This document shows positions 1-31,918 of a DNA stretch of 33,265 bases, piece after piece. The stretch spans positions 1 through 33,265 of the forward strand of contig JBFXGD010000021.1 in NCBI GenBank assembly GCA_050178385.1, written 5' to 3'. This DNA comes from Calditrichaceae bacterium (GTDB lineage Bacteria > Calditrichota > Calditrichia > Calditrichales > JBFXGD01). Position 1 is the first letter of the stretch. Every line of letters starts with the position of its first letter. The translations under genes were made by a program, and so were the position numbers. The notes under the pieces were generated by a model, which saw nothing but the letters and a program-made list of their open reading frames with translations, was not told the origin of the DNA and did not search any database.

Positions 1-1773
1 GCAATGGTCATGATCGCAATTATCATTGTAACCATTCCTTATTATCAGAAGCTTATTGTAGGTGATCAGCCGGTTGAAGAAAAAAAAGAAATTTATCAGT
101 CCGAGGAACAAGATTCAGTTATCTCAAAACCCGTGGTAGAGGATGAAAAGAAAGCGAAGAAAGAAACACCAATTGTTGAAAAAATGAAGGAAGCGAGTGT
201 CTCATCCTACACCAACCTAACAGTTGATCAGGATATCGCGGAAAAAAAGATTGAGATTAATACAGACAAAATTAGAGTAATACTATCAAATCGCGGTGGC
301 GGAAGTCTTGAAAAGTTTGTTCTAAAAAAATACTCCAAGTATGATACCACCCTGGTTAATATGATTGACAGGGAAATCCGCAACGATCTATATCTCAGTT
401 TTCAATCACTAAACGGTTCATATGTTGATGTTAAGGATTTGATTTTCTTTAGCAGCTCCGAGATAAAAAAGAAAAATCTCAGGGAAGGAGAGTCCTTTAA
501 AATAACCTATTCGGTAAAAATTAATAATTCGGAGTTAACAAAAACGTACATATTTTATGATGATGTGTATCATTTTGATGTAATAATTAATTTTACTAAT
601 CCCGATGAACTGCTTTTGAACAGACAGTACGAATATGGTTGGAAAAACGGACTCCCGTCGACAGAATCATATGAATCGGATGATTACAGTTATAACCAGA
701 TTTATGCTTACATGGCAGAAGACCTTGAAAGCTACGATGTTACAGAAGCAGGTGAAAAAGAGAGGGTGACATTAACAGGAACTGCTGACTGGCTTGCAAT
801 TAGAACAAAATATTTTGTTACGAGCGTTTCAAATATTAATGCTGATGTTTCCAACGGAATATATTTTTACGGCATCGGAATCCAAAAAGAGGATTTTGTT
901 CAGCGGCTATATAACACCGGTTTCTTTATTCAGTACAAAAATGAAACAGGCGGGGATTCGCTTCGTGTTTACATGGGCCCGCTGGATGACCATGAACTGA
1001 GTAAATATGATAATAATTTAGAAATTATGATAATGAATAATGGGTGGTACGAAAGAATGTTCAGATGGATCAGTCTTTTAGTGCTGCCTATTTTGACATT
1101 TTTATATTCTTTTATTCCGAACTACGGCGTAGTTATTATAATTTTCTCTATCCTTGTTAAATTCGCATTGCATCCTCTTACGAAAAAAAGCTATCAATCA
1201 ATGAAAGAGATGCAGAAAATTCAACCGATCATGGCCGAGCTGAAGGAGAAATATAAGAGCGATCCTCAGCGGATGAATAAAGAGACAATGAAGCTCTATA
1301 AAGAACATGGAGTTAATCCATTGGGGGGCTGTCTTCCGACACTGCTTCAGATGCCGTTGCTGATTGCTTTGTTTATTGTGTTCCGGTCGACTATTCAGCT
1401 GAGAGGCGCCATGTTTATTCCGGGCTGGATTGAGGATCTTTCAAGAACAGATACGTTATTCCATTTACCTTTTTCGCTGCCGATGTATGGAAATGAATTT
1501 AATCTCTTACCTATTCTTATGGCCGTCACGATGATCTTTCAGTCAAAAATGACGATGACCGACCCAAAACAAAAAGCGATGGTTTATATAATGCCGGTAT
1601 TTATGCTGTTAATCTTTAACCGTTTTCCGGCAGGATTAAATTTATACTATACAATGTTTAATCTTCTTACGATTATCCAGCAAAAATTCATCAGCAAGGG
1701 AACCGGCTTGGAGAAGGCTTCCGTTAAAGTTCCCGTAAAAGAGAAAAAAGCAAGCAAGAGCAAGAGGAGATAA
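1..1773 (+). CDS. yidC: Membrane protein insertase YidC (probably 5'-truncated)
   Basis: N-terminal TM, large periplasmic domain, C-terminal core with NYGVVIIIFSILVK, LYKEHGVNPLGGCLP, PAGLNLYY. Frame is open to the window edge (GCA before the ATG at 4). Typical synteny with mnmE. Confidence 0.97.
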   Translation, partial: AMVMIAIIIVTIPYYQKLIVGDQPVEEKKEIYQSEEQDSVISKPVVEDEKKAKKETPIVEKMKEASVSSYTNLTVDQDIAEKKIEINTDKIRVILSNRGGGSLEKFVLKKYSKYDTTLVNMIDREIRNDLYLSFQSLNGSYVDVKDLIFFSSSEIKKKNLREGESFKITYSVKINNSELTKTYIFYDDVYHFDVIINFTNPDELLLNRQYEYGWKNGLPSTESYESDDYSYNQIYAYMAEDLESYDVTEAGEKERVTLTGTADWLAIRTKYFVTSVSNINADVSNGIYFYGIGIQKEDFVQRLYNTGFFIQYKNETGGDSLRVYMGPLDDHELSKYDNNLEIMIMNNGWYERMFRWISLLVLPILTFLYSFIPNYGVVIIIFSILVKFALHPLTKKSYQSMKEMQKIQPIMAELKEKYKSDPQRMNKETMKLYKEHGVNPLGGCLPTLLQMPLLIALFIVFRSTIQLRGAMFIPGWIEDLSRTDTLFHLPFSLPMYGNEFNLLPILMAVTMIFQSKMTMTDPKQKAMVYIMPVFMLLIFNRFPAGLNLYYTMFNLLTIIQQKFISKGTGLEKASVKVPVKEKKASKSKRR

Positions 1774-1802
1774 AAGACGCCTCTGAAAAGAAGAATCCTG
1801 GT

Positions 1803-3191
1803 ATGATAATAGAAGATCAGAATGACACCATTATTTCGCTAATCAGTTCATCCACCGGAGGAAGCGTTGCAATTCTGAGAATTAGCGGTAATAACGCGGT
1901 GAGCATAACAGAAAAGTTTTTCCCTGGATATGATTTGGTAAAGTCATCCGGGGGAAGATTTTATGTCGGTAATTTTCTTTCTAGTTCACACGAAGTAATT
2001 GATCAGGTTGTTCTTCTAATATATAAAAAGCCGCACTCCTATACCGGCGAAGATGTGGTTGAGATTAATTGTCACGCGAACCCGTTTATCATCCGGAAAA
2101 TAATTGAAGAGTATCTTACCGCCAATTGCAGGATGGCCGCACCCGGAGAGTTTTCAAAAAGGGCTTTTCTAAACGGGAAAATGGATCTGGTTCAGGCTGA
2201 AGCCGTGGCCGATCTAATAAACGCAAAATCGAACGCGATCGTAAAAAACTCACTGCTGCAGCTTAGCGGTCAATTATCAGGCATCATCATCAAAATTAAA
2301 GATGACATGATAAGGATTGCTTCTCTCCTTGAATTGGATCTGGATTTCAGCGAAGAAGACCTAAATATTATCACAGCTGACCAGATTCTTGAAATCCTAA
2401 ATATGGCTGAAAGTAAAATTGATTCCCTTCTAAAAAGCTATAAGGTGGGCCATGTGCTGACCAAAGGAATTGATGTTCTTATAATAGGCAAGCCGAATGT
2501 CGGAAAATCCAGTCTGATGAACGCTTTTTTAAACAAGGACCGTGTCATTGTTTCAAATGTTCCCGGCACTACGCGTGATATTATACATGAAGATATTGTT
2601 ATTAATAATACATATGTCCGTTTTATTGATACGGCCGGTATCAGAATTACAGATGATTTTATAGAATCTGAGGGGGTTTCAAGAACCACTAAATTTATGA
2701 AGCAGGCCGATGTGATTATTCTTCTGGTGGATGCGTCGGAACCCCTGACAAGTGAAGATACACATTTAATTTCTTCCATGACGGCAGAATACCCTCAAAA
2801 GCTGATTGTTGCCGCCAATAAAACAGACAAAGGAACAGATCAAAACTGTGAAAGATATCTAAATAAAGTGAACGTAAAAACACAATACATATCAGCAAAG
2901 CTAAACAAAAACATAGATGTATTAAAAAACAGCATCACCGAAAAAATCTTTCTGCTTGAAAAAGAGATCAGCGAAGAAGTTTTAATTACAAACGAACGCC
3001 AATATGAATCGCTTAAGAAAAGCAGGGCTGATTTAAGAAGCACAAAAGATGGATTAATGAACGGCATGGGGTATGAATTTATTGCAGTGGATATACGCAC
3101 CGCAATCGAACACCTATCCGAAATAACAGGTGAAATTTCAACCGATGACATTCTTAATAACATCTTTTCTCAGTTTTGTATCGGTAAGTAA
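1803..3191 (+). CDS. mnmE: tRNA modification GTPase MnmE (TrmE)
   Basis: SYTGEDVVEI, GEFSKRAFLNGK, G1 GKPNVGKS, GTTRD, DTAG, NKTD, C-terminal FCIGK. Confidence 0.98.
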   Translation: MIIEDQNDTIISLISSSTGGSVAILRISGNNAVSITEKFFPGYDLVKSSGGRFYVGNFLSSSHEVIDQVVLLIYKKPHSYTGEDVVEINCHANPFIIRKIIEEYLTANCRMAAPGEFSKRAFLNGKMDLVQAEAVADLINAKSNAIVKNSLLQLSGQLSGIIIKIKDDMIRIASLLELDLDFSEEDLNIITADQILEILNMAESKIDSLLKSYKVGHVLTKGIDVLIIGKPNVGKSSLMNAFLNKDRVIVSNVPGTTRDIIHEDIVINNTYVRFIDTAGIRITDDFIESEGVSRTTKFMKQADVIILLVDASEPLTSEDTHLISSMTAEYPQKLIVAANKTDKGTDQNCERYLNKVNVKTQYISAKLNKNIDVLKNSITEKIFLLEKEISEEVLITNERQYESLKKSRADLRSTKDGLMNGMGYEFIAVDIRTAIEHLSEITGEISTDDILNNIFSQFCIGK

Positions 3192-3192
3192 A

Positions 3193-3208
3193 TGTTCCAC
3201 GTGAAACA
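3193..3208. promoter_or_regulatory. parS centromere site (TGTTCCACGTGAAACA)
   Basis: Matches the consensus TGTTNCACGTGAAACA. Lies in the 33-bp gap between mnmE and mnmG. Confidence 0.93.
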
Positions 3209-3224
3209 ATTAAACAGGTAATAG

Positions 3225-5096
3225 ATGAAACAGTTTGATGTCGCGGTGATCGGAGGCGGCCATGCTGGAATTGAAGCGGCAATCGTTTCGGCCAGGCTTG
3301 GATTAAAGACCGTGTTAATAACTCTGGAAAAAAATAAAATCGGTTTAATGTCATGTAACCCGGCAATTGGCGGACTGGCTAAGGGACAGCTGGTTCGTGA
3401 GATTGACGCGCTGGGCGGGGTCATGGCTAAAATCACGGATGAGGCCGGCATACATTTCAAAATGCTCAACACTTCAAAAGGGCCGGCGGTTCAATCGCCT
3501 CGGGCTCAGGCCGACCGGATATATTATGCTAAAGTGGCGCAAAAACATATTGACCAAACCGAAAATCTGACAGTAATTCAGGATATGGCAACAGGGATTA
3601 ATGTCATAGGTAATCTTGTCGATTCGATTACATTGAAAAAAAACGGAAAAATTTCAGTTCGCGCGGCGGTGTTGACCGCCGGAACTTTTTTGAATGGTAT
3701 CATCCATATCGGCTTGAATCAACTGCCGGCGGGAAGATCGGGAGAGCTGCCTTCCCTGGGTATTACGGAGTCCTTAAAAGCGCTTGGTTTTGAATCAGGC
3801 CGACTGAAAACCGGAACACCGCCTAGAATTCACCGCGACAGCATCGATTATTCAAAGGTCGAAATACAGTTACCGGATGAAAACCCGCAGCCATTTTCAT
3901 TTTCCACGGATAGTATTATCCGGCGGCAAATAAACTGCTACATTACATATACCAATTCCTCGACTCACGATGAACTGCGACAGGGATTTGATTTTTCTCC
4001 CATGTTTGGTGGCAGAATTCAGGGTGTCGGTCCGCGGTATTGTCCTTCAATCGAAGATAAAATTAATCGCTTTTCTGAGAGGGAGCGCCATCAGCTTTTT
4101 CTGGAGCCGGAAGGATATGACAATGATGAAGTCTATGTAAACGGATTCTCTACCAGCCTTCCCGCGGATGTGCAGGAAAAATCCATCCGAACGATCCAGG
4201 GATTGGAAAACACAAAAATTATCAGACTGGGCTATGCGGTTGAATACGACTTTTTCTCACCAAGCCAGTTGAAATACACACTGGAAACAAAAGAGGTCGG
4301 GAACCTCTATTTTGCCGGACAGATAAATGGCACATCCGGGTATGAGGAAGCGGCTGCCCAGGGCTTTGTCGCCGGAATTAACGCGGCTTTAAAATTAAAG
4401 GGAATGGAGCCTTTTGTTTTAAAACGTTCTGATGCGTATGTGGGAGTGCTGGTTGATGATTTGATCAATAAAATCCATGAAGAACCGTATAGAATGTTCA
4501 CATCACGCGCGGAATTCAGATTAATGCTGAGACATGATAATGCTGATCTCAGGCTGATGGAAATAGGGAAAAAGTATGGCCTGATAGACGACAGGACTTA
4601 TGAAAAATATCAGAAAAGAATAATTGATATCGACCATCTGCGAGGGGATGAGTTAAATAAAAAAATTACGCCCGAGTTGTTTAATTCATCTTATAAAGAC
4701 CAAAGTTCGCCTATTACTCAGGGAATAACTGTAAAGGATATTGTTAAGAGGCCTGAGGTTTCCCTGGATGCAATTCTGAAATTGGTATCAGATAAAAATT
4801 ATGAGCAGGCATCGGTTAGGGAAGTGGAGTTTGGCGTTAAATATGACGGATATATCGATCGCCAGAATATGCTGATGGAGAAGTTTAAGAAAATAGAGAA
4901 CAAGAAAATCGCGGAAGATATCAATTATAATTTAATTAAATCGCTTTCGACGGAAGCGCGGGAGAAGTTGAATAAAATCCGACCGGCTAGTCTTGGACAG
5001 GCATCACGAATATCCGGGGTAAGTCCCGCCGATCTTTCGGTTTTGGTGATATATATTGAAAAATTTAGCATGAACGGTGTTTCACGTGAAACATAA
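3225..5096 (+). CDS. mnmG: tRNA uridine-5-carboxymethylaminomethyl(34) synthesis enzyme MnmG (GidA)
   Basis: GGGHAGIEAA, MSCNPAIGGLAKG, RLKTGTPPR, GPRYCPSIEDK, GQINGTSGYEEAAAQG, EPYRMFTSRAE. Confidence 0.99.
   Translation: MKQFDVAVIGGGHAGIEAAIVSARLGLKTVLITLEKNKIGLMSCNPAIGGLAKGQLVREIDALGGVMAKITDEAGIHFKMLNTSKGPAVQSPRAQADRIYYAKVAQKHIDQTENLTVIQDMATGINVIGNLVDSITLKKNGKISVRAAVLTAGTFLNGIIHIGLNQLPAGRSGELPSLGITESLKALGFESGRLKTGTPPRIHRDSIDYSKVEIQLPDENPQPFSFSTDSIIRRQINCYITYTNSSTHDELRQGFDFSPMFGGRIQGVGPRYCPSIEDKINRFSERERHQLFLEPEGYDNDEVYVNGFSTSLPADVQEKSIRTIQGLENTKIIRLGYAVEYDFFSPSQLKYTLETKEVGNLYFAGQINGTSGYEEAAAQGFVAGINAALKLKGMEPFVLKRSDAYVGVLVDDLINKIHEEPYRMFTSRAEFRLMLRHDNADLRLMEIGKKYGLIDDRTYEKYQKRIIDIDHLRGDELNKKITPELFNSSYKDQSSPITQGITVKDIVKRPEVSLDAILKLVSDKNYEQASVREVEFGVKYDGYIDRQNMLMEKFKKIENKKIAEDINYNLIKSLSTEAREKLNKIRPASLGQASRISGVSPADLSVLVIYIEKFSMNGVSRET
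5078..5093. promoter_or_regulatory. parS centromere site (perfect palindrome TGTTTCACGTGAAACA)
   Basis: Exact consensus within the last codons of mnmG, where it encodes VSRET. Confidence 0.95.
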
Positions 5097-5097
5097 T

Positions 5098-5754
5098 ATG
5101 ATTCTCCCGGATTTGTTTTCGTTTCTGGACACGCAGGGGATCACTTTGAGCGAACGCCAAAGGGCTCTGCTGCTGATTTATTATGATGAGCTGGCAGGCT
5201 GGAGCAAGAAGATGAATCTGGTTTCAACCGGTGATTTGCCGCATATCGTTGAACGACATTTTTTGCCATCATTTGCCTATGTTAATCAATTGGCCGCAGA
5301 CGGGATAGATTCCGGAGCACGGATATTGGATCTGGGAACAGGTTCAGGGTTGCCGGGAATCATACTTTCTATATATTTTAATGACGACAATATCACGCTC
5401 CTGGATTCATCCAGAAAAAAAATACTTTTCTTAAAACGCCTGATTAAAAAACTGGAGCTCCGGACTAATGTGATTCATGGCCGGGCAGAGAGTACAAAAG
5501 AATCGTTCGACATTGTTGTCGCCAGAGCGGTCTCGGATATCCCGGCCTTGATTGATCTTTCCTCGCCGCTCATAAAAATTCCCGGATTTCTTTATATGAT
5601 GAAGGGTGATGATTACCGGCAGGAGTTAAGGGATGCTTTGCCGGATGGTGTCCATTTGGCCGAAGTTGAAATTCCAGGAAGCTGGAAACAATTCTCGCCT
5701 TACCTTCAAAACAAACTTTTCATAAAAATTGAGTTTACGGATGCCGGAAAATAA
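5098..5754 (+). CDS. rsmG: 16S rRNA m7G527 methyltransferase RsmG (GidB)
   Basis: WSKKMNLVS, ERHFLPS, LDLGTGSGLPG, LLDS, VVARAV. Follows mnmG. ATG 5098 is preferred over GTG 5077, which would merely translate the parS site. Confidence 0.95.
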   Translation: MILPDLFSFLDTQGITLSERQRALLLIYYDELAGWSKKMNLVSTGDLPHIVERHFLPSFAYVNQLAADGIDSGARILDLGTGSGLPGIILSIYFNDDNITLLDSSRKKILFLKRLIKKLELRTNVIHGRAESTKESFDIVVARAVSDIPALIDLSSPLIKIPGFLYMMKGDDYRQELRDALPDGVHLAEVEIPGSWKQFSPYLQNKLFIKIEFTDAGK

Positions 5755-6673
5755 GGTGTTTGACGATTTGTCCGCTCTGATAACGGAAGGGCGGAATCCG
5801 CGGACGACTAATATTGATTTGATGAGTACTGATGAAATCATACAATTAATAAATGATGAAGACAGGGTGGTCGCGGAAGCGGTTAAGAAAGAATTGCCAA
5901 AAATTTCCCGCGCAGTGGATATGATTGTTGGCGCGTTCAGGGAACAAGGCCGTTTAATTTATGTCGGCGCAGGCACATCGGGAAGGCTCGGTATGTATGA
6001 CGCGGCTGAATGTCCACCGACTTTTGGAGTCGATCCGGAGATGGTGACCGCGATTATCGCCGGAGGCAGCAATGCCCTGGTTGTATCGATCGAAGGGGCT
6101 GAAGATGATGAAATGGCCGGACGAGAAGATTTGAGGCGCGTGCTAAAATCAAACAAAGATGTGGTTTGCGGGATCGCCGCGAGCGCCAGAACACCATATG
6201 TGAGAGGCGCTCTTGATGAAGCGGGGGCCGCCGGAGCAAAAAAAATCATAATTGTCTGTAATCCCGCAGAAGAATTAAAAATTGATGTTGATGTTGTTAT
6301 TGGGCCTGTTACCGGCCCGGAAGTCATTATGGGATCCACAAGAATGAAAGCAGGGTCAGCTCAAAAGATGATCTTAAATATGCTTACCACTGCATCGATG
6401 GTAAAAATTGGTAAAGTTTATGAAAATCTTATGGTCGATTTAAAGCTGAATTCCAAAAAGCTTACCGAACGGGCCAAAAAACTGATAATGATTGCGGCAG
6501 CCGTTGATTATGAAAAAGCGTCTGATCTGCTTGTCAATTCGGGCGGGAGTGTAAAAACAGCAATTTTTATGGGCAAAACGGGCTGCTCAGTTAGCGATGC
6601 CCGTAATTTTATAGACCAAAGTGATGGTTTTCTGAGAAAGGCAATCCGGGACTGGGAATTGTCGGAAGGTTAA
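5741..6673 (+). CDS. murQ: N-acetylmuramic acid 6-phosphate etherase
   Basis: TEGRNP, GAGTSGRLG, DAAECPPTFG, EGAED, GPEVIMGSTRMKAG, NLMVD. Likely start is ATG 5741. Confidence 0.97.
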   Translation: MPENKVFDDLSALITEGRNPRTTNIDLMSTDEIIQLINDEDRVVAEAVKKELPKISRAVDMIVGAFREQGRLIYVGAGTSGRLGMYDAAECPPTFGVDPEMVTAIIAGGSNALVVSIEGAEDDEMAGREDLRRVLKSNKDVVCGIAASARTPYVRGALDEAGAAGAKKIIIVCNPAEELKIDVDVVIGPVTGPEVIMGSTRMKAGSAQKMILNMLTTASMVKIGKVYENLMVDLKLNSKKLTERAKKLIMIAAAVDYEKASDLLVNSGGSVKTAIFMGKTGCSVSDARNFIDQSDGFLRKAIRDWELSEG

Positions 6674-7848
6674 ATCGCGCTTTGAATGGCCGGGTCATGT
6701 ATTGATTCAAATTTCAAATACTTTTCGTACATGGGTTTGGACAGGTTCATTTCAGGAAACCGATTATATAAGCTTTCCGCAAACATAAAATCGAGGTGAT
6801 TCGTATTGATCGGAGCGAAACCCATAACTTTTTTCCAGATTTCCTTGTCTTCCATACAAAAATAAGTGAATACATCCGGAGAATAATAACGAATCCGGCT
6901 ATAAATTGATCTGAACATTTTTAGACGAATCGGTTTAAAGTAACGTGTCTTTTGGTCTTTACCTATAATTTGTTCACCTCGTATGATTGATGTTCCCGGG
7001 AACCGGTCTCTGATTGTTTCTTTAAGAGAAGGCGGGAACCGTAAACCACCTATGCTGATCCAAACAATGTTGTCGGGATTTATATGCTGAAAAAGCTGAT
7101 CAATAACATTGGAATATCCTGATTCCCATTCATCATAAAAAATAACCGGGTCAAAATGAAATCCCAGCTTAAAGCCCATTTTCTGAGCCTGAACCGCAGA
7201 TTCCAAACGCTCTTTAAGACTGGCGGTTTTAAATTCAATATTTGTTATAACATGATCAGGGTTTAATGACCAGGATAACACTAAATTTTCGGTTTTATTT
7301 TGGAACGATTCCAAATGACGCACATGGTTTGTTTTTGATTTAAGTTCAAAAAAAACATTATGTTTGGTGTCAAAATATGGAATAAGCAAAGAGGAAATTC
7401 CCGTATATTCTTCCAGCGCCAGGCTGTCAGCCAGTTCTCCGGTCCCAATCCGGATAATGCGATCGGGAAATTTCGCTGTAAAGGCGTCAAATTCTTCCAG
7501 AATCTTGTAGTAATTGGCATAAACAGTAAGAACAGAACTGTTCATATAACTCTGAAGAATGCAATAGGCGCAATCAAGCGGGCAGCCGGTTGTCTCGTTA
7601 ATAACCTGGTAATTACAGCAAATATAATCGTGGGATGTTCCCGGGCAGGGCTTACAAAAATTGCCTTTATAATTTGTCACGTAAAGGAGGCGCTTGCCCT
7701 CGGCGATGGAAGATGATTCAAGTTTCTCCGGTGGCGAATCAGAAATGGTAATAGGTATATTTGAAAGTTTGGAGATGATATTCTTCGCAAACGCGCTATC
7801 CCGTACATCCCGATTAATATATATATGTGAAATGGAAATCGGTTTCAT
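6670..7848 (-). CDS. Spore photoproduct lyase (SplB)-like radical SAM protein
   Basis: CxxxCxxC (GCPLDCAYC) followed by LQ, TVYAN, GELADSLALE, ELKSK, WSLNP, ERL..A, GFHFDP and KTRYF, which is the SPL-family layout. Confidence 0.88.
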   Translation of the reverse strand: MKPISISHIYINRDVRDSAFAKNIISKLSNIPITISDSPPEKLESSSIAEGKRLLYVTNYKGNFCKPCPGTSHDYICCNYQVINETTGCPLDCAYCILQSYMNSSVLTVYANYYKILEEFDAFTAKFPDRIIRIGTGELADSLALEEYTGISSLLIPYFDTKHNVFFELKSKTNHVRHLESFQNKTENLVLSWSLNPDHVITNIEFKTASLKERLESAVQAQKMGFKLGFHFDPVIFYDEWESGYSNVIDQLFQHINPDNIVWISIGGLRFPPSLKETIRDRFPGTSIIRGEQIIGKDQKTRYFKPIRLKMFRSIYSRIRYYSPDVFTYFCMEDKEIWKKVMGFAPINTNHLDFMFAESLYNRFPEMNLSKPMYEKYLKFESIHDPAIQSAI

Positions 7849-8816
7849 TAAATATCCAGAAGCTCCTTAAGTGATGCAATATTTTTTTTAGTGTTAAGCA
7901 GACTGAGAGCAGACGTAAAGTCATTCTCATCTTTAATATTTATAATAAGTTGCAATCCCTCGGACTCGAATGAATTGTCAAATCTAATTTGAGCATTGGG
8001 CGGCAGATTTATATCTTTTGTTTTTTGTAATGCTTTTAGTCTGTGCTGTGATATGGCCGGATATCGTAATGAAAAAAGGGCGCTTTTTAGGTGTTGCGTT
8101 TTTTGGCTTTTTGTAAGCTGGTCATTTGATAAAACCACCCGCACGGAATCATGGCTAAGAATCTCTTCAATGCTCACCTTTTTATTCAACGCGGACTCAA
8201 AAACAAGTTCGCTGATATTGATCAATTCAACAAGGCGTACAGATAACTGGATCCCAATGTCAAAAATTGGTTGTAATTCGGCTTCGGATTTATCTAAGAG
8301 CGGGCGCAGTTGTCTGTAGGATGCGTTATATTTGTTTATATAATTTAAAAAAGGTTTAGGCCATTGCAGAATACGCTTGATTTTATCCATTTGTGATTCG
8401 TTGTGAGGAAGATTCAGCTGATTCCGCCATGCATAGAGTTCTTGTATTGGAACGGAATTAATACCTAAAAAATGAAAAATGGATATTTTTTGATACAGGT
8501 TGGGTTCTGAATCATAATTCAGTGAAAAAAGCCGAATTTTTGCGATTTTCTCAAATCCAAAGGAAGAATCCAAAACAATGACCGGAACGGATTTTAGGGA
8601 AAGATCGGCGGCAATATTCAGTCGTTTGTAGCCGTCGATAACATATATACGATCTTTATTAATAAAACAAATTAATGGGCTTAGAATCCCAAATTGGTAG
8701 ATGGATGAACGAAGTTGGCCTGATTCAGGTGACGAATTAATGTCAAAATCCGGCTCCAAATGAATTTCATTCACATTTAAAGATTTATTTTGATTCAGGT
8801 TTTTCATATGCACCAC
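7848..8816 (-). CDS. ParB/Srx N-terminal domain protein (divergent ParB-like)
   Basis: LRSSIYQFGILSPL (box I-like), IDGYKRL (box II-like), VPVIVL, then a helical region. Likely start is ATG 8807. Its stop overlaps the next start (TAATG). Confidence 0.8.
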   Translation of the reverse strand: MVHMKNLNQNKSLNVNEIHLEPDFDINSSPESGQLRSSIYQFGILSPLICFINKDRIYVIDGYKRLNIAADLSLKSVPVIVLDSSFGFEKIAKIRLFSLNYDSEPNLYQKISIFHFLGINSVPIQELYAWRNQLNLPHNESQMDKIKRILQWPKPFLNYINKYNASYRQLRPLLDKSEAELQPIFDIGIQLSVRLVELINISELVFESALNKKVSIEEILSHDSVRVVLSNDQLTKSQKTQHLKSALFSLRYPAISQHRLKALQKTKDINLPPNAQIRFDNSFESEGLQLIINIKDENDFTSALSLLNTKKNIASLKELLDI

Positions 8817-9402: not shown

Positions 9403-10581
9403 ATGACAACATTACTAAGCCTGGTTCTACTTATATTTGTTGCATATATCGGTTCAGTTTTTTATCAAAGACTTAGGATTGACGCGCTTTGGGTGAAGAG
9501 TTTTGCTTACTCGGGAAGCGTATATCTTTTGATTGGGTATTTGATAGGACCGGATTCGCTTAAAATTGTGACCGCTGATATCCTGGATCAATTGAAAGTG
9601 CTTTTCGCGCTTGTTCTGGGGTGGGCGGGGTTCCTGATCGGGTTACAGGTTAAAATCAAAGCTTTAAAAAGATTTCAAAGCTCATATTATAAATTTGCAT
9701 CATTAAATTTTATCATTGCCCTGGTTTTAACATATTTTGCGCTTCTTTATTTATTCGGGCAAATTTTTCAGATAACCAACAAAAATGAAATATTTATTCT
9801 TTCGCTGGCTACGGCGGTGACCTCTCCAATTATAATAGGTGTTGTATCCAGGGAGAGAAGGCTGTCTGGAAGATTGTCGCATCTGCTGCAATTTAACGCT
9901 GGTTATGATAACATTCTTGGAATTATGATTGTGGGGATATTCTCGGCAGTTATTAGTAATACAGCACTGCTGGGGGGGTATCATCCCGGGGGCTTGTTAA
10001 TTTTTGTTTCCATGTTAATTGGGCTTACGGCTACATACCTATATAACTTCCTATCCAAAGAATTGAAGACAGAAGAAGAAAATTTCCTGCTGCTGCTTGG
10101 CCTGATGGTATTTATAGTTGGGATTGCCCTTTACCTAAGTCAGAGTCTGCTGTTTATATCGTTTGTGTTTGGCGCGGGACTTGCGAACCGCAAAATGGAT
10201 ACAAAAAAATTATTTTTAAATATAGAAAAAGTAGAGAAACCGCTTTATATCCTACTCCTAATATATGTGGGGGCTAAAATGGATTTAACAGATCCCGTTT
10301 ATATAGGATTACTAATAATATTTCTTGCGGTAACTGTTTTGACAAAATTGTTATCAGGATTTATCGCGAATTATACATTAAATAAACATTCAAGATTAAA
10401 AAATTCAATCGGACTGGCAAATTTAGGGATGGGAGGCTTGTCGCTGGCACTGATTCTGGATTTCCATTTAATTAGTTCATCCGAATATACTCCGGTTCTA
10501 TTGTTTGTCCTTACCGTTTCAATAGTTGTAAACGATTTATTTTCAATGATTTATCTTGGAAGATTAGCCAGGAAGAAATAA
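9403..10581 (+). CDS. Cation:proton antiporter (CPA/Na+/H+ exchanger fold) membrane protein, divergent
   Basis: Roughly 12 hydrophobic segments. YLLIGYLIGP, GFLIGLQ, ATAVTSP, YDNILG, EKPLYILLLIYVGA. Confidence 0.75.
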   Translation: MTTLLSLVLLIFVAYIGSVFYQRLRIDALWVKSFAYSGSVYLLIGYLIGPDSLKIVTADILDQLKVLFALVLGWAGFLIGLQVKIKALKRFQSSYYKFASLNFIIALVLTYFALLYLFGQIFQITNKNEIFILSLATAVTSPIIIGVVSRERRLSGRLSHLLQFNAGYDNILGIMIVGIFSAVISNTALLGGYHPGGLLIFVSMLIGLTATYLYNFLSKELKTEEENFLLLLGLMVFIVGIALYLSQSLLFISFVFGAGLANRKMDTKKLFLNIEKVEKPLYILLLIYVGAKMDLTDPVYIGLLIIFLAVTVLTKLLSGFIANYTLNKHSRLKNSIGLANLGMGGLSLALILDFHLISSSEYTPVLLFVLTVSIVVNDLFSMIYLGRLARKK

Positions 10582-10596
10582 CTTTTGAAGGATGGA

Positions 10597-11886
10597 ATGG
10601 CCAGAATAATTATCACAATATCATTACTGGTTCTATTTTATTTTATCAGATATGGTGTCGACCATGGCGGAGATCTGTCTGCCGAAACGACAATGCTAAC
10701 CGGTATAATGCTGTTAACATCTTACCTTTTGGCTATTTCATTAAAAGACATAAAGCTTCCAAAATTAACAGGTTATATGTTGATGGGAATAGTATTGGGA
10801 CCCATCGGATTAAATTTTCTTACCCATGATATCCTTGACAATTTAAAATTCCTTGAAAATCTGGCGCTCTCTTTTATCGCGATAACGGCCGGAGGAGAAT
10901 TTAAGCGGGAACGTGTAAAGAAGATTCTAAAGACAGTTGTTTATTTAATAGTGGGGCAGTCTGTATTCGTTTTTGCCGGCTTATTTCTCTTAATAATCTT
11001 TCTGGCTGAATATATTCCTTACTTAGCCGGGCTGGAGTCAAACCTGTTAATTGGGTTTGCGATCATGTTTGCCGGAACAGCGACCGCAAAATCACCTGCG
11101 ATAACAATCGGTATAATCACGGAGCTTAAATCAAAGGGTAAAATGACGGATGTGGTACTGGCGGTGACGGTAATCAAATCCATCCTGCTGATTTTATTGT
11201 TTCCGTTTATGATATCCGCCGCAAAAATATTTATAATTGATGGAACTGTAATAAATATAGGAATGCTTTCTGAGCTTTCAGTGCAATTTCTTAGTTCGAT
11301 CGGACTTGGAACATTTCTTGGTGTTTTAACAATTATTTATTTAAAACATATAAATAAAGAAGTTAGCTTGTTTTTGTTGGGCATAGCGATAATTATCATG
11401 GAAATTAGCTCGCTCTTTAACGTGGAAATCCTTTTAGCGTCACTTGTAACCGGCATAATCGTTGAAAATTTTTCTGAACACGGAGATTCTCTGATTCAGG
11501 GAATTGAGAAAAGTTCCCTGCCGCTGTATATAATATTTTTCTGTTTCGCCGGGGCGGATTTACATTTGGGGACACTAAAGCAGGCATTATTATTGACAAC
11601 GTTACTGGTGCTGGGGCGATTATTTTTCATTTACGCAGGAAACTACGTGGGAGCTCTTTTTGCCGGAGAGAACAGAAACATTAAAAATCTATCATGGATG
11701 GGATTTGTGGGTCAGGCGGGTATCGCCGTAGGTTTGGCAACAATAATTGAAAATACTTTTCCGGGTATAGTGGGCCAGCAATTAAAGACGATCCTTATCG
11801 CAACGGTGGTTATCAATGAATTGATAGGGCCAATATTCTTTAAATATATCTTGATTAAATCTGGTGAAACACAACATAAGGGGTGA
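10597..11886 (+). CDS. Cation:proton antiporter (CPA2-like) membrane protein
   Basis: LPKLTGYMLMGIVLGP, IAITAGGE, KSPAIT, FFCFAGADL, QAGIAVGLA, INELIGP. ATG 10597 is preferred (TTG 10585 possible). Confidence 0.85.
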   Translation: MARIIITISLLVLFYFIRYGVDHGGDLSAETTMLTGIMLLTSYLLAISLKDIKLPKLTGYMLMGIVLGPIGLNFLTHDILDNLKFLENLALSFIAITAGGEFKRERVKKILKTVVYLIVGQSVFVFAGLFLLIIFLAEYIPYLAGLESNLLIGFAIMFAGTATAKSPAITIGIITELKSKGKMTDVVLAVTVIKSILLILLFPFMISAAKIFIIDGTVINIGMLSELSVQFLSSIGLGTFLGVLTIIYLKHINKEVSLFLLGIAIIIMEISSLFNVEILLASLVTGIIVENFSEHGDSLIQGIEKSSLPLYIIFFCFAGADLHLGTLKQALLLTTLLVLGRLFFIYAGNYVGALFAGENRNIKNLSWMGFVGQAGIAVGLATIIENTFPGIVGQQLKTILIATVVINELIGPIFFKYILIKSGETQHKG

Positions 11887-27180: not shown

Positions 27181-27266
27181 ACAAATATTGATTCTAAACA
27201 TATCTTTTCAATTCAAAAAACAGGGTTAAAACATAAACCTTCACCGCACAACAGAAGGAGTTGAAC

Positions 27267-30200
27267 ATGAAACGAAAAAAGGTCACAATAGATGGAAACG
27301 AAGCTGCTGCTTATGTGGCCCATAAAGTAAATGAAGTTATAGCCATCTATCCGATAACACCCTCATCGAACATGGGGGAATGGGCTGATGAATATTCCGC
27401 AAAGGGCCAGAAAAATATATGGGGAACAATTCCGAGCGTCACAGAGATGCAGAGTGAAGGCGGCGCCTCCGGCGCGGTACACGGAGCTTTGCAGACCGGC
27501 GCGTTAACAACCACATTTACAGCATCACAGGGATTGCTTCTTATGATCCCGAATATGTATAAAATAGCGGGTGAATTAACAGCGACGGTCTTTCATGTTT
27601 CGGCGCGTTCCATCGCCGCGCAGGCATTATCCATATTTGGGGATCACAGCGATGTGATGGCAACCCGCCAGACGGGTTTCGCGTTACTGGCGTCAAATTC
27701 AGTTCAGGAAGTTATGGATTTTGCGCTGATTACGCAGGCCGCCACACTCGAAGCAAGAATTCCTTTTGTACACTTTTTTGATGGTTTCAGAACATCTCAC
27801 GAAGTTATGAAAATTGAACAGCTTACGATTGATGATATGAAAGAGATGATCGATGATGATCTGGTTATTGCCCACAGAAAAAGAGGCTTGACACCGGATA
27901 AGCCTGTAGTCCGTGGAACGGCACAGAATCCGGATGTGTTTTTCCAGGCCAGGGAAACGGTCAATCCATATTACGAAAAAACTCCGAATATTGTCCAAAA
28001 AGCCATGGATAAATTTGCAAAAATAACGGGTCGCCAGTATAAATTGTTTGAATATGTCGGACATCCGGAAGCCGAACGTGTAGTTGTAGTAATGGGTTCG
28101 GGCGCTGAAGCCGTTCAGGAAGCCGTTGAATATTTAATGGCTGCAGGGGAAAAAGTTGGTATGATAAAAGTTCGTCTATACCGCCCCTTCTCGAAAAAGC
28201 ATCTAATGGAAGCTCTGCCGAAGACAACCAAAGCAATGGCTGTTTTAGACAGGACAAAAGAGCCGGGTTCCGCGGGTGAACCATTGTACCAGGATATCAT
28301 GACTTCAATGATGGAAGGCATGACGGAAGGAATTCTGCCTACTGAACGTTTCCCGAAATTTATTGGTGGCCGTTACGGGCTTTCATCCAAAGAATTTACG
28401 CCCGCCATGATCATGAGTATTTATGACGAATTAAAGAAGGAAAAGCCGAAAAATCATTTCACCATCGGTATAAAAGATGATTTATCAAACACCAGTCTTG
28501 AATATGATCCGAGTTTGTCCACGGAATCCAAAGATGTTATCCGCGGAATGTTTTACGGATTAGGAGCTGACGGGACGGTTGGCGCGAATAAGAATTCAAT
28601 TAAGATTATCGGCGAAGAAACAGATAATTATGCCCAGGGTTATTTTGTATATGATTCAAAGAAATCGGGTTCGGTGACCATTTCGCATTTGCGTTTTGGG
28701 AAGAAGCCGATTCATTCAACCTATCTTATCTCAAAAGCAAATTTTATCGCTTGCCATCAATTCACATTTGTTGAAAAATTTGATATTCTTGGAAACGCGA
28801 TGGAAGGCGCGACATTTTTGCTGAACAGTCCTTATGAAAAGGATGAGGTTTGGAATAAACTGCCAAAACTTGTTCAAAAACAGATGATCGACAAGAAACT
28901 TAAATTTTATGTGATTGACGCTTATGAAGTCGCGAAACATACAGGTATGGGACAGCGTATCAATACGATCATGCAGACTTGCTTCTTTGCGATTTCGGGT
29001 GTATTGCCAAAAGATGAAGCAATCGAAAAAATTAAAAATACCATCAAAAAAACCTATGGCCGCAAAGGTGAAGATATTGTAAAAATGAATTATAACGCGG
29101 TTGATCAAACGCTGGCCAATTTGCATGAAATAAAAGTACCGGCTCAGATAAGCAGTCTGATAGATCTGCCGCCGGTTGTATCCGAAAAGGCGCCGGATTT
29201 TGTTAAAGATGTGACGGCGATGATGATGGCCGGAAAAGGTGATGATCTTCCGGTAAGCGCGATGCCCGATGACGGGACATATCCTACAGGGACAACACAG
29301 TGGGAAAAACGGAATATCGCTCTTGAAATTCCTGTCTGGGATGAAGAAATATGTATTCAATGCGGCAAATGCGCTATGGTATGTCCGCATGCGGTTATCA
29401 GAATAAAAGCCTATGATGAAAAACATCTCGAAAACGCTCCATCCACATTTAAACATATGGTCGCCAAGGGAAAAGAATGGCCGGAGAAAACCATGTACAC
29501 GATTCAGGTTGCTCCGGAAGATTGTACCGGATGTGAGATGTGTGTGGAAGTGTGCCCGGCAAAAAGCAAAGAAGTGGTTGGGCATAAAGCGCTGGATATG
29601 GCGCCTCAGCTGCCTCTCAAGGAAGCGGAAAAAGAGAACTGGGATCACTTCCTTAATATCCCTGAATTTGATCGGTCGATGCTAAAGCAGGATACGGTAA
29701 AAGGTTCACAGTTCCTTCAGCCTCTGTTCGAATTCTCCGGAGCGTGCGCCGGGTGTGGTGAAACGCCGTATATCAAACTGGTTACCCAGCTTTTTGGTGA
29801 CAGAATGGTGATTGCCAATGCTACGGGATGTTCATCCATTTATGGCGGTAATCTTCCTACGACCCCCTATACAACGAATGAAGATGGCCGCGGACCGGCA
29901 TGGTCGAACTCATTATTTGAGGATAATGCCGAATTTGGTCTTGGTTACCGGCTTACAATTGATAAACAAACCGAACAGGCTTTTGAATTGCTTACTAAAT
30001 TAAAGGATCAGCTTGATTCCGCGTTGGTTGATGAAATTATGAACGCGAATCAGGCAGAAGAGACCGAAATTTTTGAGCAGAGAAAACGTGTTGAAAAACT
30101 CAATGAGCAGTTGCTGAAAATAAATTCAAAAGAGTCAAAACTGCTTCTGAGTTTGAGTAATTACCTGGTGAAGAAGAGTGTATGGATTATCGGCGGTGAC

Positions 30201-30854
30201 GGCTGGGCTTATGATATCGGTTACGGCGGTCTGGATCATGTTCTCGCTTCAGGAAAGAATGTTAATATTCTTGTACTGGATACGGAAGTCTATTCCAATA
30301 CAGGCGGTCAGATGTCCAAAGCAACCCCGATGGGCGCCGTGGCAAAATTCGCGGCCGGCGGTAAGCCCGCCCCAAAGAAAGATCTCGGAATGCTGGCCAT
30401 GTCATACGGCAATGTTTACGTGGCGAAAATCGCCATGGGCGCGAGTGATACTCAAACGGTAAAAGCGATCATCGAAGCGGAAAAATATGACGGTCCTTCT
30501 CTGATCATCGCTTACAGCCACTGTATCGCTCATGGATATAATATGCGCTACGGAATGCAGCAGCAAAAACTCGCGGTCGATTCCGGTCACTGGCATTTAT
30601 ACCGCTACAATCCGGATATGGCAAAAGAGGGAATCAATCCGTTAAAACTCGATTCCAAAGAGCCGAAAATCGCGCTGGAAGATTACATTTACAATGAAAC
30701 CCGTTACAAAATGCTGACCAAGATGAATCCGAAAGCAGCAAAAGAACTTCTTGCTCAGGCCCAGGAAGATGTCAAGGAACGGTATAAGTTGTACGCCAAT
30801 ATGGCAAAAATGGATTATTCCACCGACAAAGAAGATGAGAGTAATGAAAAATAA
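27267..30854 (+). CDS. nifJ: Pyruvate:ferredoxin (flavodoxin) oxidoreductase, single-chain
   Basis: YPITP, EMQSEGGA, two ferredoxin motifs (CIQCGKCAMVCP, CTGCEMCVEVCP), GACAGCGE, GGDGWAYDIG (TPP). SD GAAGGAG favours ATG 27267. Confidence 0.98.
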   Translation: MKRKKVTIDGNEAAAYVAHKVNEVIAIYPITPSSNMGEWADEYSAKGQKNIWGTIPSVTEMQSEGGASGAVHGALQTGALTTTFTASQGLLLMIPNMYKIAGELTATVFHVSARSIAAQALSIFGDHSDVMATRQTGFALLASNSVQEVMDFALITQAATLEARIPFVHFFDGFRTSHEVMKIEQLTIDDMKEMIDDDLVIAHRKRGLTPDKPVVRGTAQNPDVFFQARETVNPYYEKTPNIVQKAMDKFAKITGRQYKLFEYVGHPEAERVVVVMGSGAEAVQEAVEYLMAAGEKVGMIKVRLYRPFSKKHLMEALPKTTKAMAVLDRTKEPGSAGEPLYQDIMTSMMEGMTEGILPTERFPKFIGGRYGLSSKEFTPAMIMSIYDELKKEKPKNHFTIGIKDDLSNTSLEYDPSLSTESKDVIRGMFYGLGADGTVGANKNSIKIIGEETDNYAQGYFVYDSKKSGSVTISHLRFGKKPIHSTYLISKANFIACHQFTFVEKFDILGNAMEGATFLLNSPYEKDEVWNKLPKLVQKQMIDKKLKFYVIDAYEVAKHTGMGQRINTIMQTCFFAISGVLPKDEAIEKIKNTIKKTYGRKGEDIVKMNYNAVDQTLANLHEIKVPAQISSLIDLPPVVSEKAPDFVKDVTAMMMAGKGDDLPVSAMPDDGTYPTGTTQWEKRNIALEIPVWDEEICIQCGKCAMVCPHAVIRIKAYDEKHLENAPSTFKHMVAKGKEWPEKTMYTIQVAPEDCTGCEMCVEVCPAKSKEVVGHKALDMAPQLPLKEAEKENWDHFLNIPEFDRSMLKQDTVKGSQFLQPLFEFSGACAGCGETPYIKLVTQLFGDRMVIANATGCSSIYGGNLPTTPYTTNEDGRGPAWSNSLFEDNAEFGLGYRLTIDKQTEQAFELLTKLKDQLDSALVDEIMNANQAEETEIFEQRKRVEKLNEQLLKINSKESKLLLSLSNYLVKKSVWIIGGDGWAYDIGYGGLDHVLASGKNVNILVLDTEVYSNTGGQMSKATPMGAVAKFAAGGKPAPKKDLGMLAMSYGNVYVAKIAMGASDTQTVKAIIEAEKYDGPSLIIAYSHCIAHGYNMRYGMQQQKLAVDSGHWHLYRYNPDMAKEGINPLKLDSKEPKIALEDYIYNETRYKMLTKMNPKAAKELLAQAQEDVKERYKLYANMAKMDYSTDKEDESNEK

Positions 30855-30866
30855 TTAAGTTAAATG

Positions 30867-30901
30867 ATGCAGGAGGCTGAAGATAAGTCTCCTGCATTTT
30901 T
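30867..30901 (+). terminator. Intra-operon hairpin/terminator between PFOR and the DHODH-like gene
   Basis: ATGCAGGAGGCT-loop-AGTCTCCTGCAT followed by TTTT. Confidence 0.6.
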
Positions 30902-30925
30902 AAATTATGGGGGAAAGGAGCCGAT

Positions 30926-31918
30926 ATGGATCTTTCAACAAAGTATCTAGGCTTAAAGTTAAAAAATCCGCTTGTACCTTCCGCGTCACCTTTATCAAAT
31001 AATATTGACACCGTAAAAAAACTTGAAGACGCTGGCGCTGCCGCGGTGGTAATGTACTCATTGTTTGAAGAACAGATCACCCACGAAAGCAACGAGATCG
31101 ATACGTTTTTAACCTATGGTTCTGAAAGTTTCTCCGAAGCATTGAGTTATTTTCCTCAGCCTGAGGCGTTTAACAATTTGGATGCGGAAGAATATCTGGA
31201 ACAGGTTGCCCGTCTAAAAAGCGCGGTTGATATTCCGATAATAGGGAGTTTAAATGGCGTTTCATCAGGCGGATGGATGAAGTACGCGAAAAAAATTGAA
31301 GAAGCAGGCGCCGACGCGCTGGAGCTAAATGTTTATTATATTCCGACCGATCCGAACATGACGTCACAGCAGGTCGAAGAGATTTATCTCGATAATCTTA
31401 AAACGGTGAAAGAATCTATTAAAATACCGGTCGCGATTAAATTGAGTCCCTTCTTCAGCGCCTTCGCCAATATGGCAACAAAACTGGATAAAGCAGGCGT
31501 CGACGGCCTTGTACTGTTTAATCGTTTCTATCAGCCGGATATCGACCTCGAGGAATTGGAAGTTGTCCCGAATTTAATCTTTAGTTCGTCACATGAAATG
31601 CGGCTGCCCTTAAGATGGCTCGCTATTTTATACGGCAAGATAAACGCGAATCTCGCGGCGACGACCGGGATACACGACGCGAAGGATGTTCTCAAGATGG
31701 TAATGGCCGGCGCGGATGTGACCATGATGGCGTCAGTGCTTCTGAAGGACGGTGTCGGTCAAGTTTCCAAAATTCTGGCTGATCTTGAAAAGTGGATGGA
31801 AGAACATGAGTATAAATCAATTTCACAGATGAAGGGATCGATGAGCTACAAGAATGTGGCGGAACCGGCAGCGTACGAACGGGCCAACTATATGAAAACA
31901 CTTCAGAGTATAAAATAA
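30926..31918 (+). CDS. Dihydroorotate dehydrogenase-like FMN protein (PFOR-associated family)
   Basis: [66 protein letters not shown]. Confidence 0.92.

Follow-up and report, generated by a model that had tools for sequence, protein, structure and literature searches.

Why should a homolog of spore photoproduct lyase (SPL) share a locus with a ParB-like protein in a bacterium that does not form spores? The question is raised by two adjoining genes in a 33,265-nucleotide stretch of DNA from a Calditrichaceae bacterium (assembly GCA_050178385.1, contig JBFXGD010000021.1, positions 1-33,265 of the forward strand), the whole of which is referred to here as the window. One gene encodes the ParB-like protein and the other an SPL-like radical S-adenosylmethionine (SAM) enzyme. 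The ParB paralog and the SPL-like enzyme are a dedicated unit, co-retained in three phyla. We place at about one half the probability that the ParB paralog is a dedicated accessory subunit of this enzyme for repair of a pyrimidine lesion in DNA other than the classic spore photoproduct (SP).

7848-8816, minus strand: ParB paralog, a putative helper subunit for the SPL-like enzyme (322 amino acids from a GTG start)
6670-7848, minus strand: SPL-like radical SAM enzyme, short 'type S' clade (392 amino acids)
7846-7850, minus strand: one-base stop/start overlap TAATG (stop TAA 7850-7848, start ATG 7848-7846; AAGGAG upstream)

An earlier note on this DNA, made from the sequence alone, had drawn attention to this overlap and to the orientation of the pair against its surroundings, and both are confirmed, as the pair stands alone on the minus strand and all remaining identified genes of the window are on the plus strand. 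Public gene callers begin the ParB-like open reading frame (ORF) at Met4, giving 319 amino acids. Overlaps of 1-4 nucleotides join the two genes in 6/6 adjacent Calditrichota pairs, and the nearest named relative, a Calditrichaceae metagenome-assembled genome (87% identity), has an identical gene order. The host had been presumed not to sporulate, and neither Spo0A_C nor SASP gave a match in its 94% complete genome, whereas a B. subtilis control gave matches.

Co-retention of the two genes

SPL-like enzymes were found in 75/86 Calditrichota, 79/151 Omnitrophota and 55/201 Acidobacteriota genomes. The Omnitrophota contain a whole short enzyme in 45 genomes, and the partner is present in all 45 (41 at full length on a different contig, 4 as fragments) as well as in 4/4 genomes with a further, partial enzyme match, compared with 5/72 genomes without an enzyme match. 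Among the 86 Calditrichota genomes, the ParB-like protein occurs in 26 and the type S enzyme in 26, with both in 24 and the two genes adjacent in 6; the non-adjacent pairs are unlinked, with 140 kb between the genes in the single-contig genome G435, and the four mismatched genomes are 62-85% complete. The C-terminal module of the partner was detected in 39/201 Acidobacteriota genomes, comprising 38/55 with an SPL-like gene and 1/146 without, and in 22 it lies directly upstream on the same strand; 27 of the 39 positive genomes had themselves supplied sequences to the profile, and of the other 12, 11 are SPL genomes. The pair thus recurs in three phyla, as the neighbourhood survey proposed in the earlier note was meant to establish, and the idea of an uncharacterised system whose two components are conserved, in a host that does not sporulate, is supported by co-occurrence and by the fusions described below. 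From genomics, the partnership is very probably real.

These counts also bear on whether an orphan ParB, either Noc-like or a second reader of parS, merely happens to lie beside an unrelated SPL homolog. Such chance proximity could be argued from the lack of linkage in 18/24 Calditrichota and 41/41 Omnitrophota genomes that have both genes, and from 5 genomes of Omnitrophota, 2 of Calditrichota and 1 of Acidobacteriota that have a partner but no enzyme match. However, co-retention is near-complete even when the genes are unlinked, the separate partner and the fused forms are mutually exclusive, the two sides share homologous domains, and the two Calditrichota exceptions are only 62% and 81% complete, all of which makes coincidence highly improbable.

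The ParB-like partner

The ParB-like protein alone scores 19 bits against Pfam ParB_N, under the cut-off of 26.3. With 19.3 bits against the TIGR00180 cut-off of 58.45 and no parA neighbour, it is not a canonical ParB. A homolog search with the single sequence gave 3 matches only and a profile was required: a profile of 11 homologs matches Spo0J/ParB/Noc structures over the N-terminal and central domains (E 1e-15), and in a set of 1.84 billion representatives it retrieves 1043 clusters at E<=1e-30. The AlphaFold2 (AF2) model (pLDDT 95.5) has Noc and ParB as its best Foldseek matches, and in VIA-align it resembles sulfiredoxin (Srx; Z 11.2), PadC (Z 10.1) and KorB (Z 9.8), the N-terminal fold itself superposing on sulfiredoxin with a root-mean-square deviation (rmsd) of 2.5 over 87 residues and on PadC with 2.2 over 98. 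Four regions can be distinguished.

8502-8816, minus strand: ParB/Srx N-terminal nucleotide-binding fold, residues 1-105 (S38, G43, P47; GYKR at 8622-8633)
8271-8501, minus strand: central helical domain, residues 106-182, homologous to the ParB helix-turn-helix (HTH) domain (aligned with 6SDK and with the canonical ParB of this genome)
8034-8270, minus strand: helical module, residues 183-261, QK...K..L...RYP, common to the N-terminal extensions of fused SPL forms and to nucleosidase-type partners (hhalign)
7851-8033, minus strand: C-terminal alpha/beta domain, residues 262-322, invariant E284, common to nucleosidase-type partners (AF2 secondary structure; hhalign)

In the order of its N-terminal, central helical and C-terminal domains the protein resembles chromosomal ParB/Spo0J, Noc and PadC, and it keeps S38, G43 and GxxR (94%, 97% and 149/150 respectively in 150 aligned family members), which correspond to residues whose roles (S68, G73, R95) are described for M. 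xanthus ParB in the accessible text of PMC13229309. It differs from these proteins in the complete loss of GERR (0/150) and of Glu in the hydrolytic column (0/150), in a degenerate ENLQR box (EN..R in 11/150), in a ParA-binding motif reduced to LG[RK]GL-like matches in 2/150, with no LGRGL in the N-terminal domain of the window protein, and in an addition of about 45 helical residues. The recognition-helix columns of the central domain are unconserved by column counts, and outside the Calditrichales no parS lies near the gene. Because the hydrolytic Glu, GERR and the ParA motif are gone and the recognition helix is unconserved, the protein is an orphan ParB paralog and, as judged from its sequence, probably hydrolysis-dead. 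The C-terminal alpha/beta domain probably corresponds to the dimerisation domain of ParB; its match to the C-terminus of the genome's canonical ParB is below significance, and a role in dimerisation is for this reason only a presumed one. The helical module alone gave no convincing structural match (Z 6 or less).

That parA was missing from the vicinity had been pointed out before and holds for the whole window. The canonical parA-parB of this genome is on contig C24, where parB follows parA and has both GERR and LGRGL, scoring 180 bits against TIGR00180. The ParB-like gene is therefore not the genome's only canonical parS-binding parB, which had been named as an outcome that would speak against a dedicated system. 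The parAB genes on C24 adjoin an M23 peptidase gene.

Fused and domain-swapped forms

The top matches outside ParB that a hidden Markov model of the ParB-like family, free of SPL sequences, gave among the ORFs of the loci were extensions at the N-termini of long SPL-like proteins. In hhalign comparisons, the type A extension aligned to partner residues 183-261 at 96.2% (E 2e-9), the type B extension to residues 156-228 at 69.9% (E 4e-5), and the C-terminus of a nucleosidase-like partner, encoded upstream of type N enzymes, to residues 185-322 at 96.6% (E 5e-10), against at most 1.2% in reversed and 45 shuffled controls; an initial comparison of mixed alignments was uninformative (7%). Genomes with fused forms have no separate partner: none was found in the fused-form Omnitrophota (0/19 with type A, 0/11 with type B only, 5 of them rechecked) or in the remaining Calditrichota SPL genomes (0/40, the 8 inspected all having long type B enzymes), while the 35 Calditrichota genomes with a separate module divide into 26 with the ParB-type and 9 with the nucleosidase-type partner. 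In a quick SPL tree, types A, B and N are each set apart by a well-supported branch; this tree is midpoint-rooted, leaves out about 85% of the metagenome type B rows, has L201 and L007 labelled as 'other' and is not used to claim an order of fusions. A metagenome scan found long-form loci only.

The N-terminal half of the partner is replaced by the nucleosidase-like domain in one clade and is absent in the fused forms. The C-terminal module is thus the constant element of the partner, and the N-terminal cargo varies. Since the fused and nucleosidase forms keep the C-terminal module only, it is this half, and not the CTP (cytidine triphosphate) switch, that is constant; GxxR is also absent from more divergent partners, and these findings, together with the missing hydrolytic Glu, do not sustain the earlier proposal in so far as it puts a CTP switch at the centre of the mechanism. 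As other branches of the enzyme carry the matching piece fused to themselves, the ParB paralog is likely to be a helper subunit.

The nucleosidase-like domain matches PNP_UDP_1 (E 4e-7), futalosine hydrolase (E 5e-8) and, weakly, HpnG (E 0.0014). Its GEA, (V/I)DxE and KxxSD motifs (ORFs upstream in L244-L252) are ones that we take to resemble the catalytic motifs of methylthioadenosine/S-adenosylhomocysteine (MTA/SAH) nucleosidase, and a partner of this kind that cleared 5'-deoxyadenosine would imply stoichiometric use of SAM.

Some genomes hold two SPL-like enzymes (G102, with L155 and L150; G186, G306, G210 and G184), which differ in type in G102, G186 and G306. No full 714-residue ParB-SPL fusion came to light among long open frames, with no search for longer proteins made: the 665-745-residue frames of GC-rich Acidobacteriota are stop-to-stop artefacts, and the 738-residue frame of Omnitrophota joins GT2 to a long SPL form. 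Such fusions may still occur.

The SPL-like enzyme

The enzyme scores 93 bits against Pfam SPL (cut-off 27), with 109.8 bits against the TIGR04070 cut-off of 400 and 38.6 against the TIGR03886 cut-off of 437.55, which places it in the SPL family and outside SplB. Its AF2 model (pLDDT 91.4) has the SPL fold, in which a domain of alpha/beta type at the N-terminus is followed by a partial TIM barrel, and aligns with 4FHC over 322 residues (Z 32.4, rmsd 2.4), the next radical SAM match being MqnE at Z 14.6; Foldseek likewise matches it to SPL (E 7e-23, TM-score 0.72-0.74 to the query). Two cysteine-containing segments stand out.

7561-7584, minus strand: CxxxCxYC iron-sulfur motif, C89/C93/C96 (invariant in 121/121 aligned homologs)
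7615-7647, minus strand: extra conserved cysteines C68 and C77-C78 (aligned by profile with the S76C mutant 4RH0; conservation)

Compared with SplB (TIGR04070; G. thermodenitrificans structures 4FHC-4FHG, 4K9R and 4RH0), to which it is 20% identical, the enzyme shares the CxxxCxYC motif and the SAM contacts. Residues D143, K174, S195, Y96 and R273 are kept as D141, K172, S194, Y95 and R270, and L99 is kept too; this map was read off a printed alignment, with Y339 and K309 outside the mapped region, and the residue roles are those given in the accessible part of PMC3467042. A cysteine is also present at the clostridial hydrogen-donor position (S76/C77), since C68 (99% of 121 homologs) aligns, by sequence alignment only, with S76C of 4RH0. 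In contrast to SplB, the enzyme has Glu for C140 (E138), Ile for Y98 (I97) and Ser for R193 (S192) and E268 (the invariant S265), further conserved cysteines at C77-C78 and C331, a C-terminal extension of about 60 residues, a partner gene or fused helical module, and non-sporulating hosts; across the family the Bacillus hydrogen-donor position is invariantly Glu or Gln. The predicted lesion is probably not the classic SP, and C68 (or C331) may quench the radical. A further SPL-like clade (L226-L229) lacks C68, C77 and C78 and mostly C331, and its partners are divergent and unlinked (L297-L299, L301).

These features can be set against the view that the protein is a true clostridial-type SP lyase acting in dried vegetative cells, with the ParB-like protein as its loader or as an SplA-like regulator. 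Its whole-length SPL fold, the cysteine at S76/C77 and retention of the phosphate-binding R273 would all agree with such an enzyme. But its TIGR04070 score is far under the cut-off (110 bits vs 400), R193, E268 and Y98 are gone and neither SASP nor Spo0A was found in the host, and a pure transcription regulator would be unlikely to donate a domain to its enzyme or to exchange its N-terminus for a nucleosidase. SplA, itself a Pfam family, is absent among the Pfam scan matches of the partners and long forms. We regard a true SP lyase as unlikely.

Repair, modification or synthesis

Under the favoured reading, DNA repair with the ParB paralog as accessory subunit, the C-terminal half of the partner would dock the SPL-like enzyme and keep it on chromosomal DNA, and the SAM-derived radical would repair a damaged pyrimidine; the N-terminal domain, hydrolysis-dead and possibly CTP-binding, would be helpful and yet dispensable across the family. 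Physical binding of partner and enzyme, DNA as the substrate and the chemistry are what we infer.

Several observations weigh against this reading. The dihydrothymine-binding R193 and E268 are replaced, as are C140 and Y98, and C68 is missing from the nucleosidase-type and 'noCC' clades, with C331 missing from one. A direct comparison of the extensions of types A and B gives 0.4%, as does that of the short 'N2' partners with the ParB-like profile, neither being significant. Related genomes in the co-occurrence counts are not independent events, and 17/55 Acidobacteriota SPL genomes have no match to the C-terminal half, which fusions explain only in part: 3 have fused forms (G283, G331, G306), in 2 the partner is short and of the nucleosidase type (G214, G330), and several of the remaining 12 are weak SPL matches that possibly belong to other families. 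No conserved DNA-repair neighbourhood was seen around the pair; by eye, a UvrD/PcrA-like helicase gene is near it in one Acidobacteriota lineage only (L256, L258, L259, L260), where the pair is divergent from the TPR-like and helicase genes. Finally, the nucleosidase-like partner and the tracking of the SPL-like enzyme by a glycosyltransferase fit synthesis or modification better than repair.

This glycosyltransferase, of a distinct family 2 (GT2) type, adjoins several SPL-like loci, and in the Omnitrophota genome G132 a single ORF of 738 residues (L154:2327-4540) joins GT2 to the helical module and to an SPL-like enzyme of type B. In the Acidobacteriota GT2 occurs in 32/201 genomes, and all 32 belong to the 55 that encode an SPL-like enzyme. 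In the Calditrichota it is found in 55/86 genomes, including 7/11 without an SPL-like match, and it was not found in the genome of the window, in G001 or in any of 17 genomes of family f5, including the single-contig G435. GT2 is accordingly associated with the SPL-like enzyme without being obligatory.

The same partnership could serve base modification, with the radical activating or adenosylating a nucleic-acid base that GT2 and nucleosidase-like domains then elaborate; by analogy, this would be an oxygen-independent parallel to the phage pathway in which ParB-dependent thymine oxidation is followed by glycosylation. The confinement of GT2, within the Acidobacteriota, to SPL-positive genomes, its location beside and in one case within the enzyme, the nucleosidase-like partner and the replacement of the Bacillus hydrogen-donor Cys by Glu or Gln all point in this direction. 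Against it stand the genomes that have the pair but no GT2, among them that of the window, the Calditrichota with GT2 but no SPL-like match, and the lack of any viral relative of the enzyme among 109 candidates. We hold base modification as a tentative possibility, and its more specific form as a slightly more doubtful one. There, a widespread system, chromosomal and single-copy in non-sporulating bacteria, would use a clamp or adaptor derived from ParB to bring the SPL-fold enzyme to DNA, where it would add a base modification instead of removing one, for instance by making an adenosylated or radical-activated pyrimidine for glycosylation by a dedicated GT2.

Radical SAM, nucleosidase and GT2 functions together also recall the logic of HpnH/HpnG/HpnI and of MqnE/MqnB. 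The product could in that case be a small molecule, lipid head group or glycan, with the ParB part a vestigial scaffold, as the matches of nucleosidase-type partners to HpnG and futalosine hydrolase and the scattered, non-repair neighbourhoods might suggest. The enzyme is nevertheless far nearer to SPL than to MqnE, most partners keep the whole DNA-clamp-like architecture, and the genome of the window has neither GT2 nor a nucleosidase domain in its partner, so that we consider a synthetic role improbable.

Relation to known systems

The closest functional parallel to a ParB-assisted repair enzyme is offered by the phage ParB-dependent thymine dioxygenases (5mYOX with a ParB activator), which, according to the accessible text of PMC13229309, require a ParB homolog on double-stranded DNA whose nucleoside triphosphate (NTP) residues are dispensable. 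The two systems are alike in dedicating a ParB homolog to an enzyme that acts, or here would act, on DNA bases, in having partner-independent enzyme clades, and in the apparent dispensability of the NTP residues. They differ in chemistry, radical SAM here and Fe/2-oxoglutarate there, and the present system is chromosomal and single-copy rather than phage-borne; its partner retains an HTH-like domain at its centre and has an extra helical module, which other clades carry fused to the enzyme. SplB-like enzymes have been linked to SOS neighbourhoods in PMC3765255, the accessible part of which does not mention ParB, and the terms radical SAM, photoproduct and lyase are absent from the main text of a survey of the ParB fold (bioRxiv 2025.10.10.680097) as far as that text was available. 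The literature searched, with subscription journals outside its scope, holds no description of the ParB-like and SPL-like pair, and in that literature the system is undescribed: a member of the SPL family that relies on a ParB-derived partner module.

SPL-like enzymes of this kind carry the database labels 'spore photoproduct lyase' or 'DNA photolyase' despite an altered lesion-reading pocket, and our analysis identifies a partner domain that is unannotated and has no Pfam family. If the repair reading is correct, these enzymes need the partner module, which tells what to co-express, and the function of SPL homologs in bacteria that form no spores, a long-standing question, would become directly testable; the repurposing of ParB as an activator of DNA-acting enzymes would also reach beyond phage dioxygenases to radical SAM enzymes encoded on chromosomes. 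If base modification is correct instead, the product would be an undescribed, oxygen-independent bacterial DNA mark, and the module would be an adaptor that has in turn been joined with ParB, with a nucleosidase and with the SPL-like enzyme.

A role in defence found no support. The PADLOC match of the ParB domain to a methyltransferase (MTase) model is weak only, viral relatives are lacking among the candidates noted above, and the 30 matches in plasmid records are all below 60% identity, the 15 listed being at 23-28% and mostly canonical splB.

parS sites and genomic surroundings

The window contains two parS sites, both in neighbouring genes' junctions and outside the system.

5078-5093, plus strand: parS at the mnmG/rsmG junction, 0 mismatches, 1.6 kb from the pair
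3193-3208, plus strand: parS at the mnmE/mnmG junction, 1 mismatch, 3.5 kb from the pair

The earlier note had placed parS within about 4 kb of the pair, which is correct, and these two are the assembly's only sites at 2 or fewer mismatches; three matches at up to 3 mismatches were obtained in 0/100 shuffles. The suggested link between parS and the pair did not hold up in 306 loci (1.64 Mb), among which parS is near the pair in three Calditrichales loci only, where the pair follows mnmG-rsmG-murQ. None is near the pair in the 11-13 kb loci of other lineages, and other parS matches among the 306 loci are those of canonical-type ParB matches. A parS link is thus not supported, and the proximity reflects the site at which the pair was inserted, a coincidence of lineage.

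Positions 1-6673 of the window hold the yidC-mnmE-mnmG-rsmG cluster with its two parS sites, and murQ follows rsmG in place of parA-parB. The order yidC-mnmE-mnmG-rsmG with parA-parB is typical of origin-proximal regions and is rearranged here. The stop codons of murQ (plus) and of the SPL-like gene (minus) overlap head to head at 6670-6673 with no terminator-like site between them, and a scan of promoters and terminators gave no excess over shuffles (9 vs 10.9 and 0 vs 2.2 respectively). On the other side of the pair, tandem membrane-only genes of the Na+/H+ exchanger family (9403-11886) follow a cupin gene, and the cupin or first exchanger also adjoins the pair in the G001, G004 and G037 loci. 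Further downstream (27261-31918), a pyruvate:ferredoxin oxidoreductase-like gene is followed by a dihydroorotate dehydrogenase-like gene, both identified by eye, which agrees with a host that lives anaerobically and can supply radical SAM enzymes with electrons from low-potential donors.

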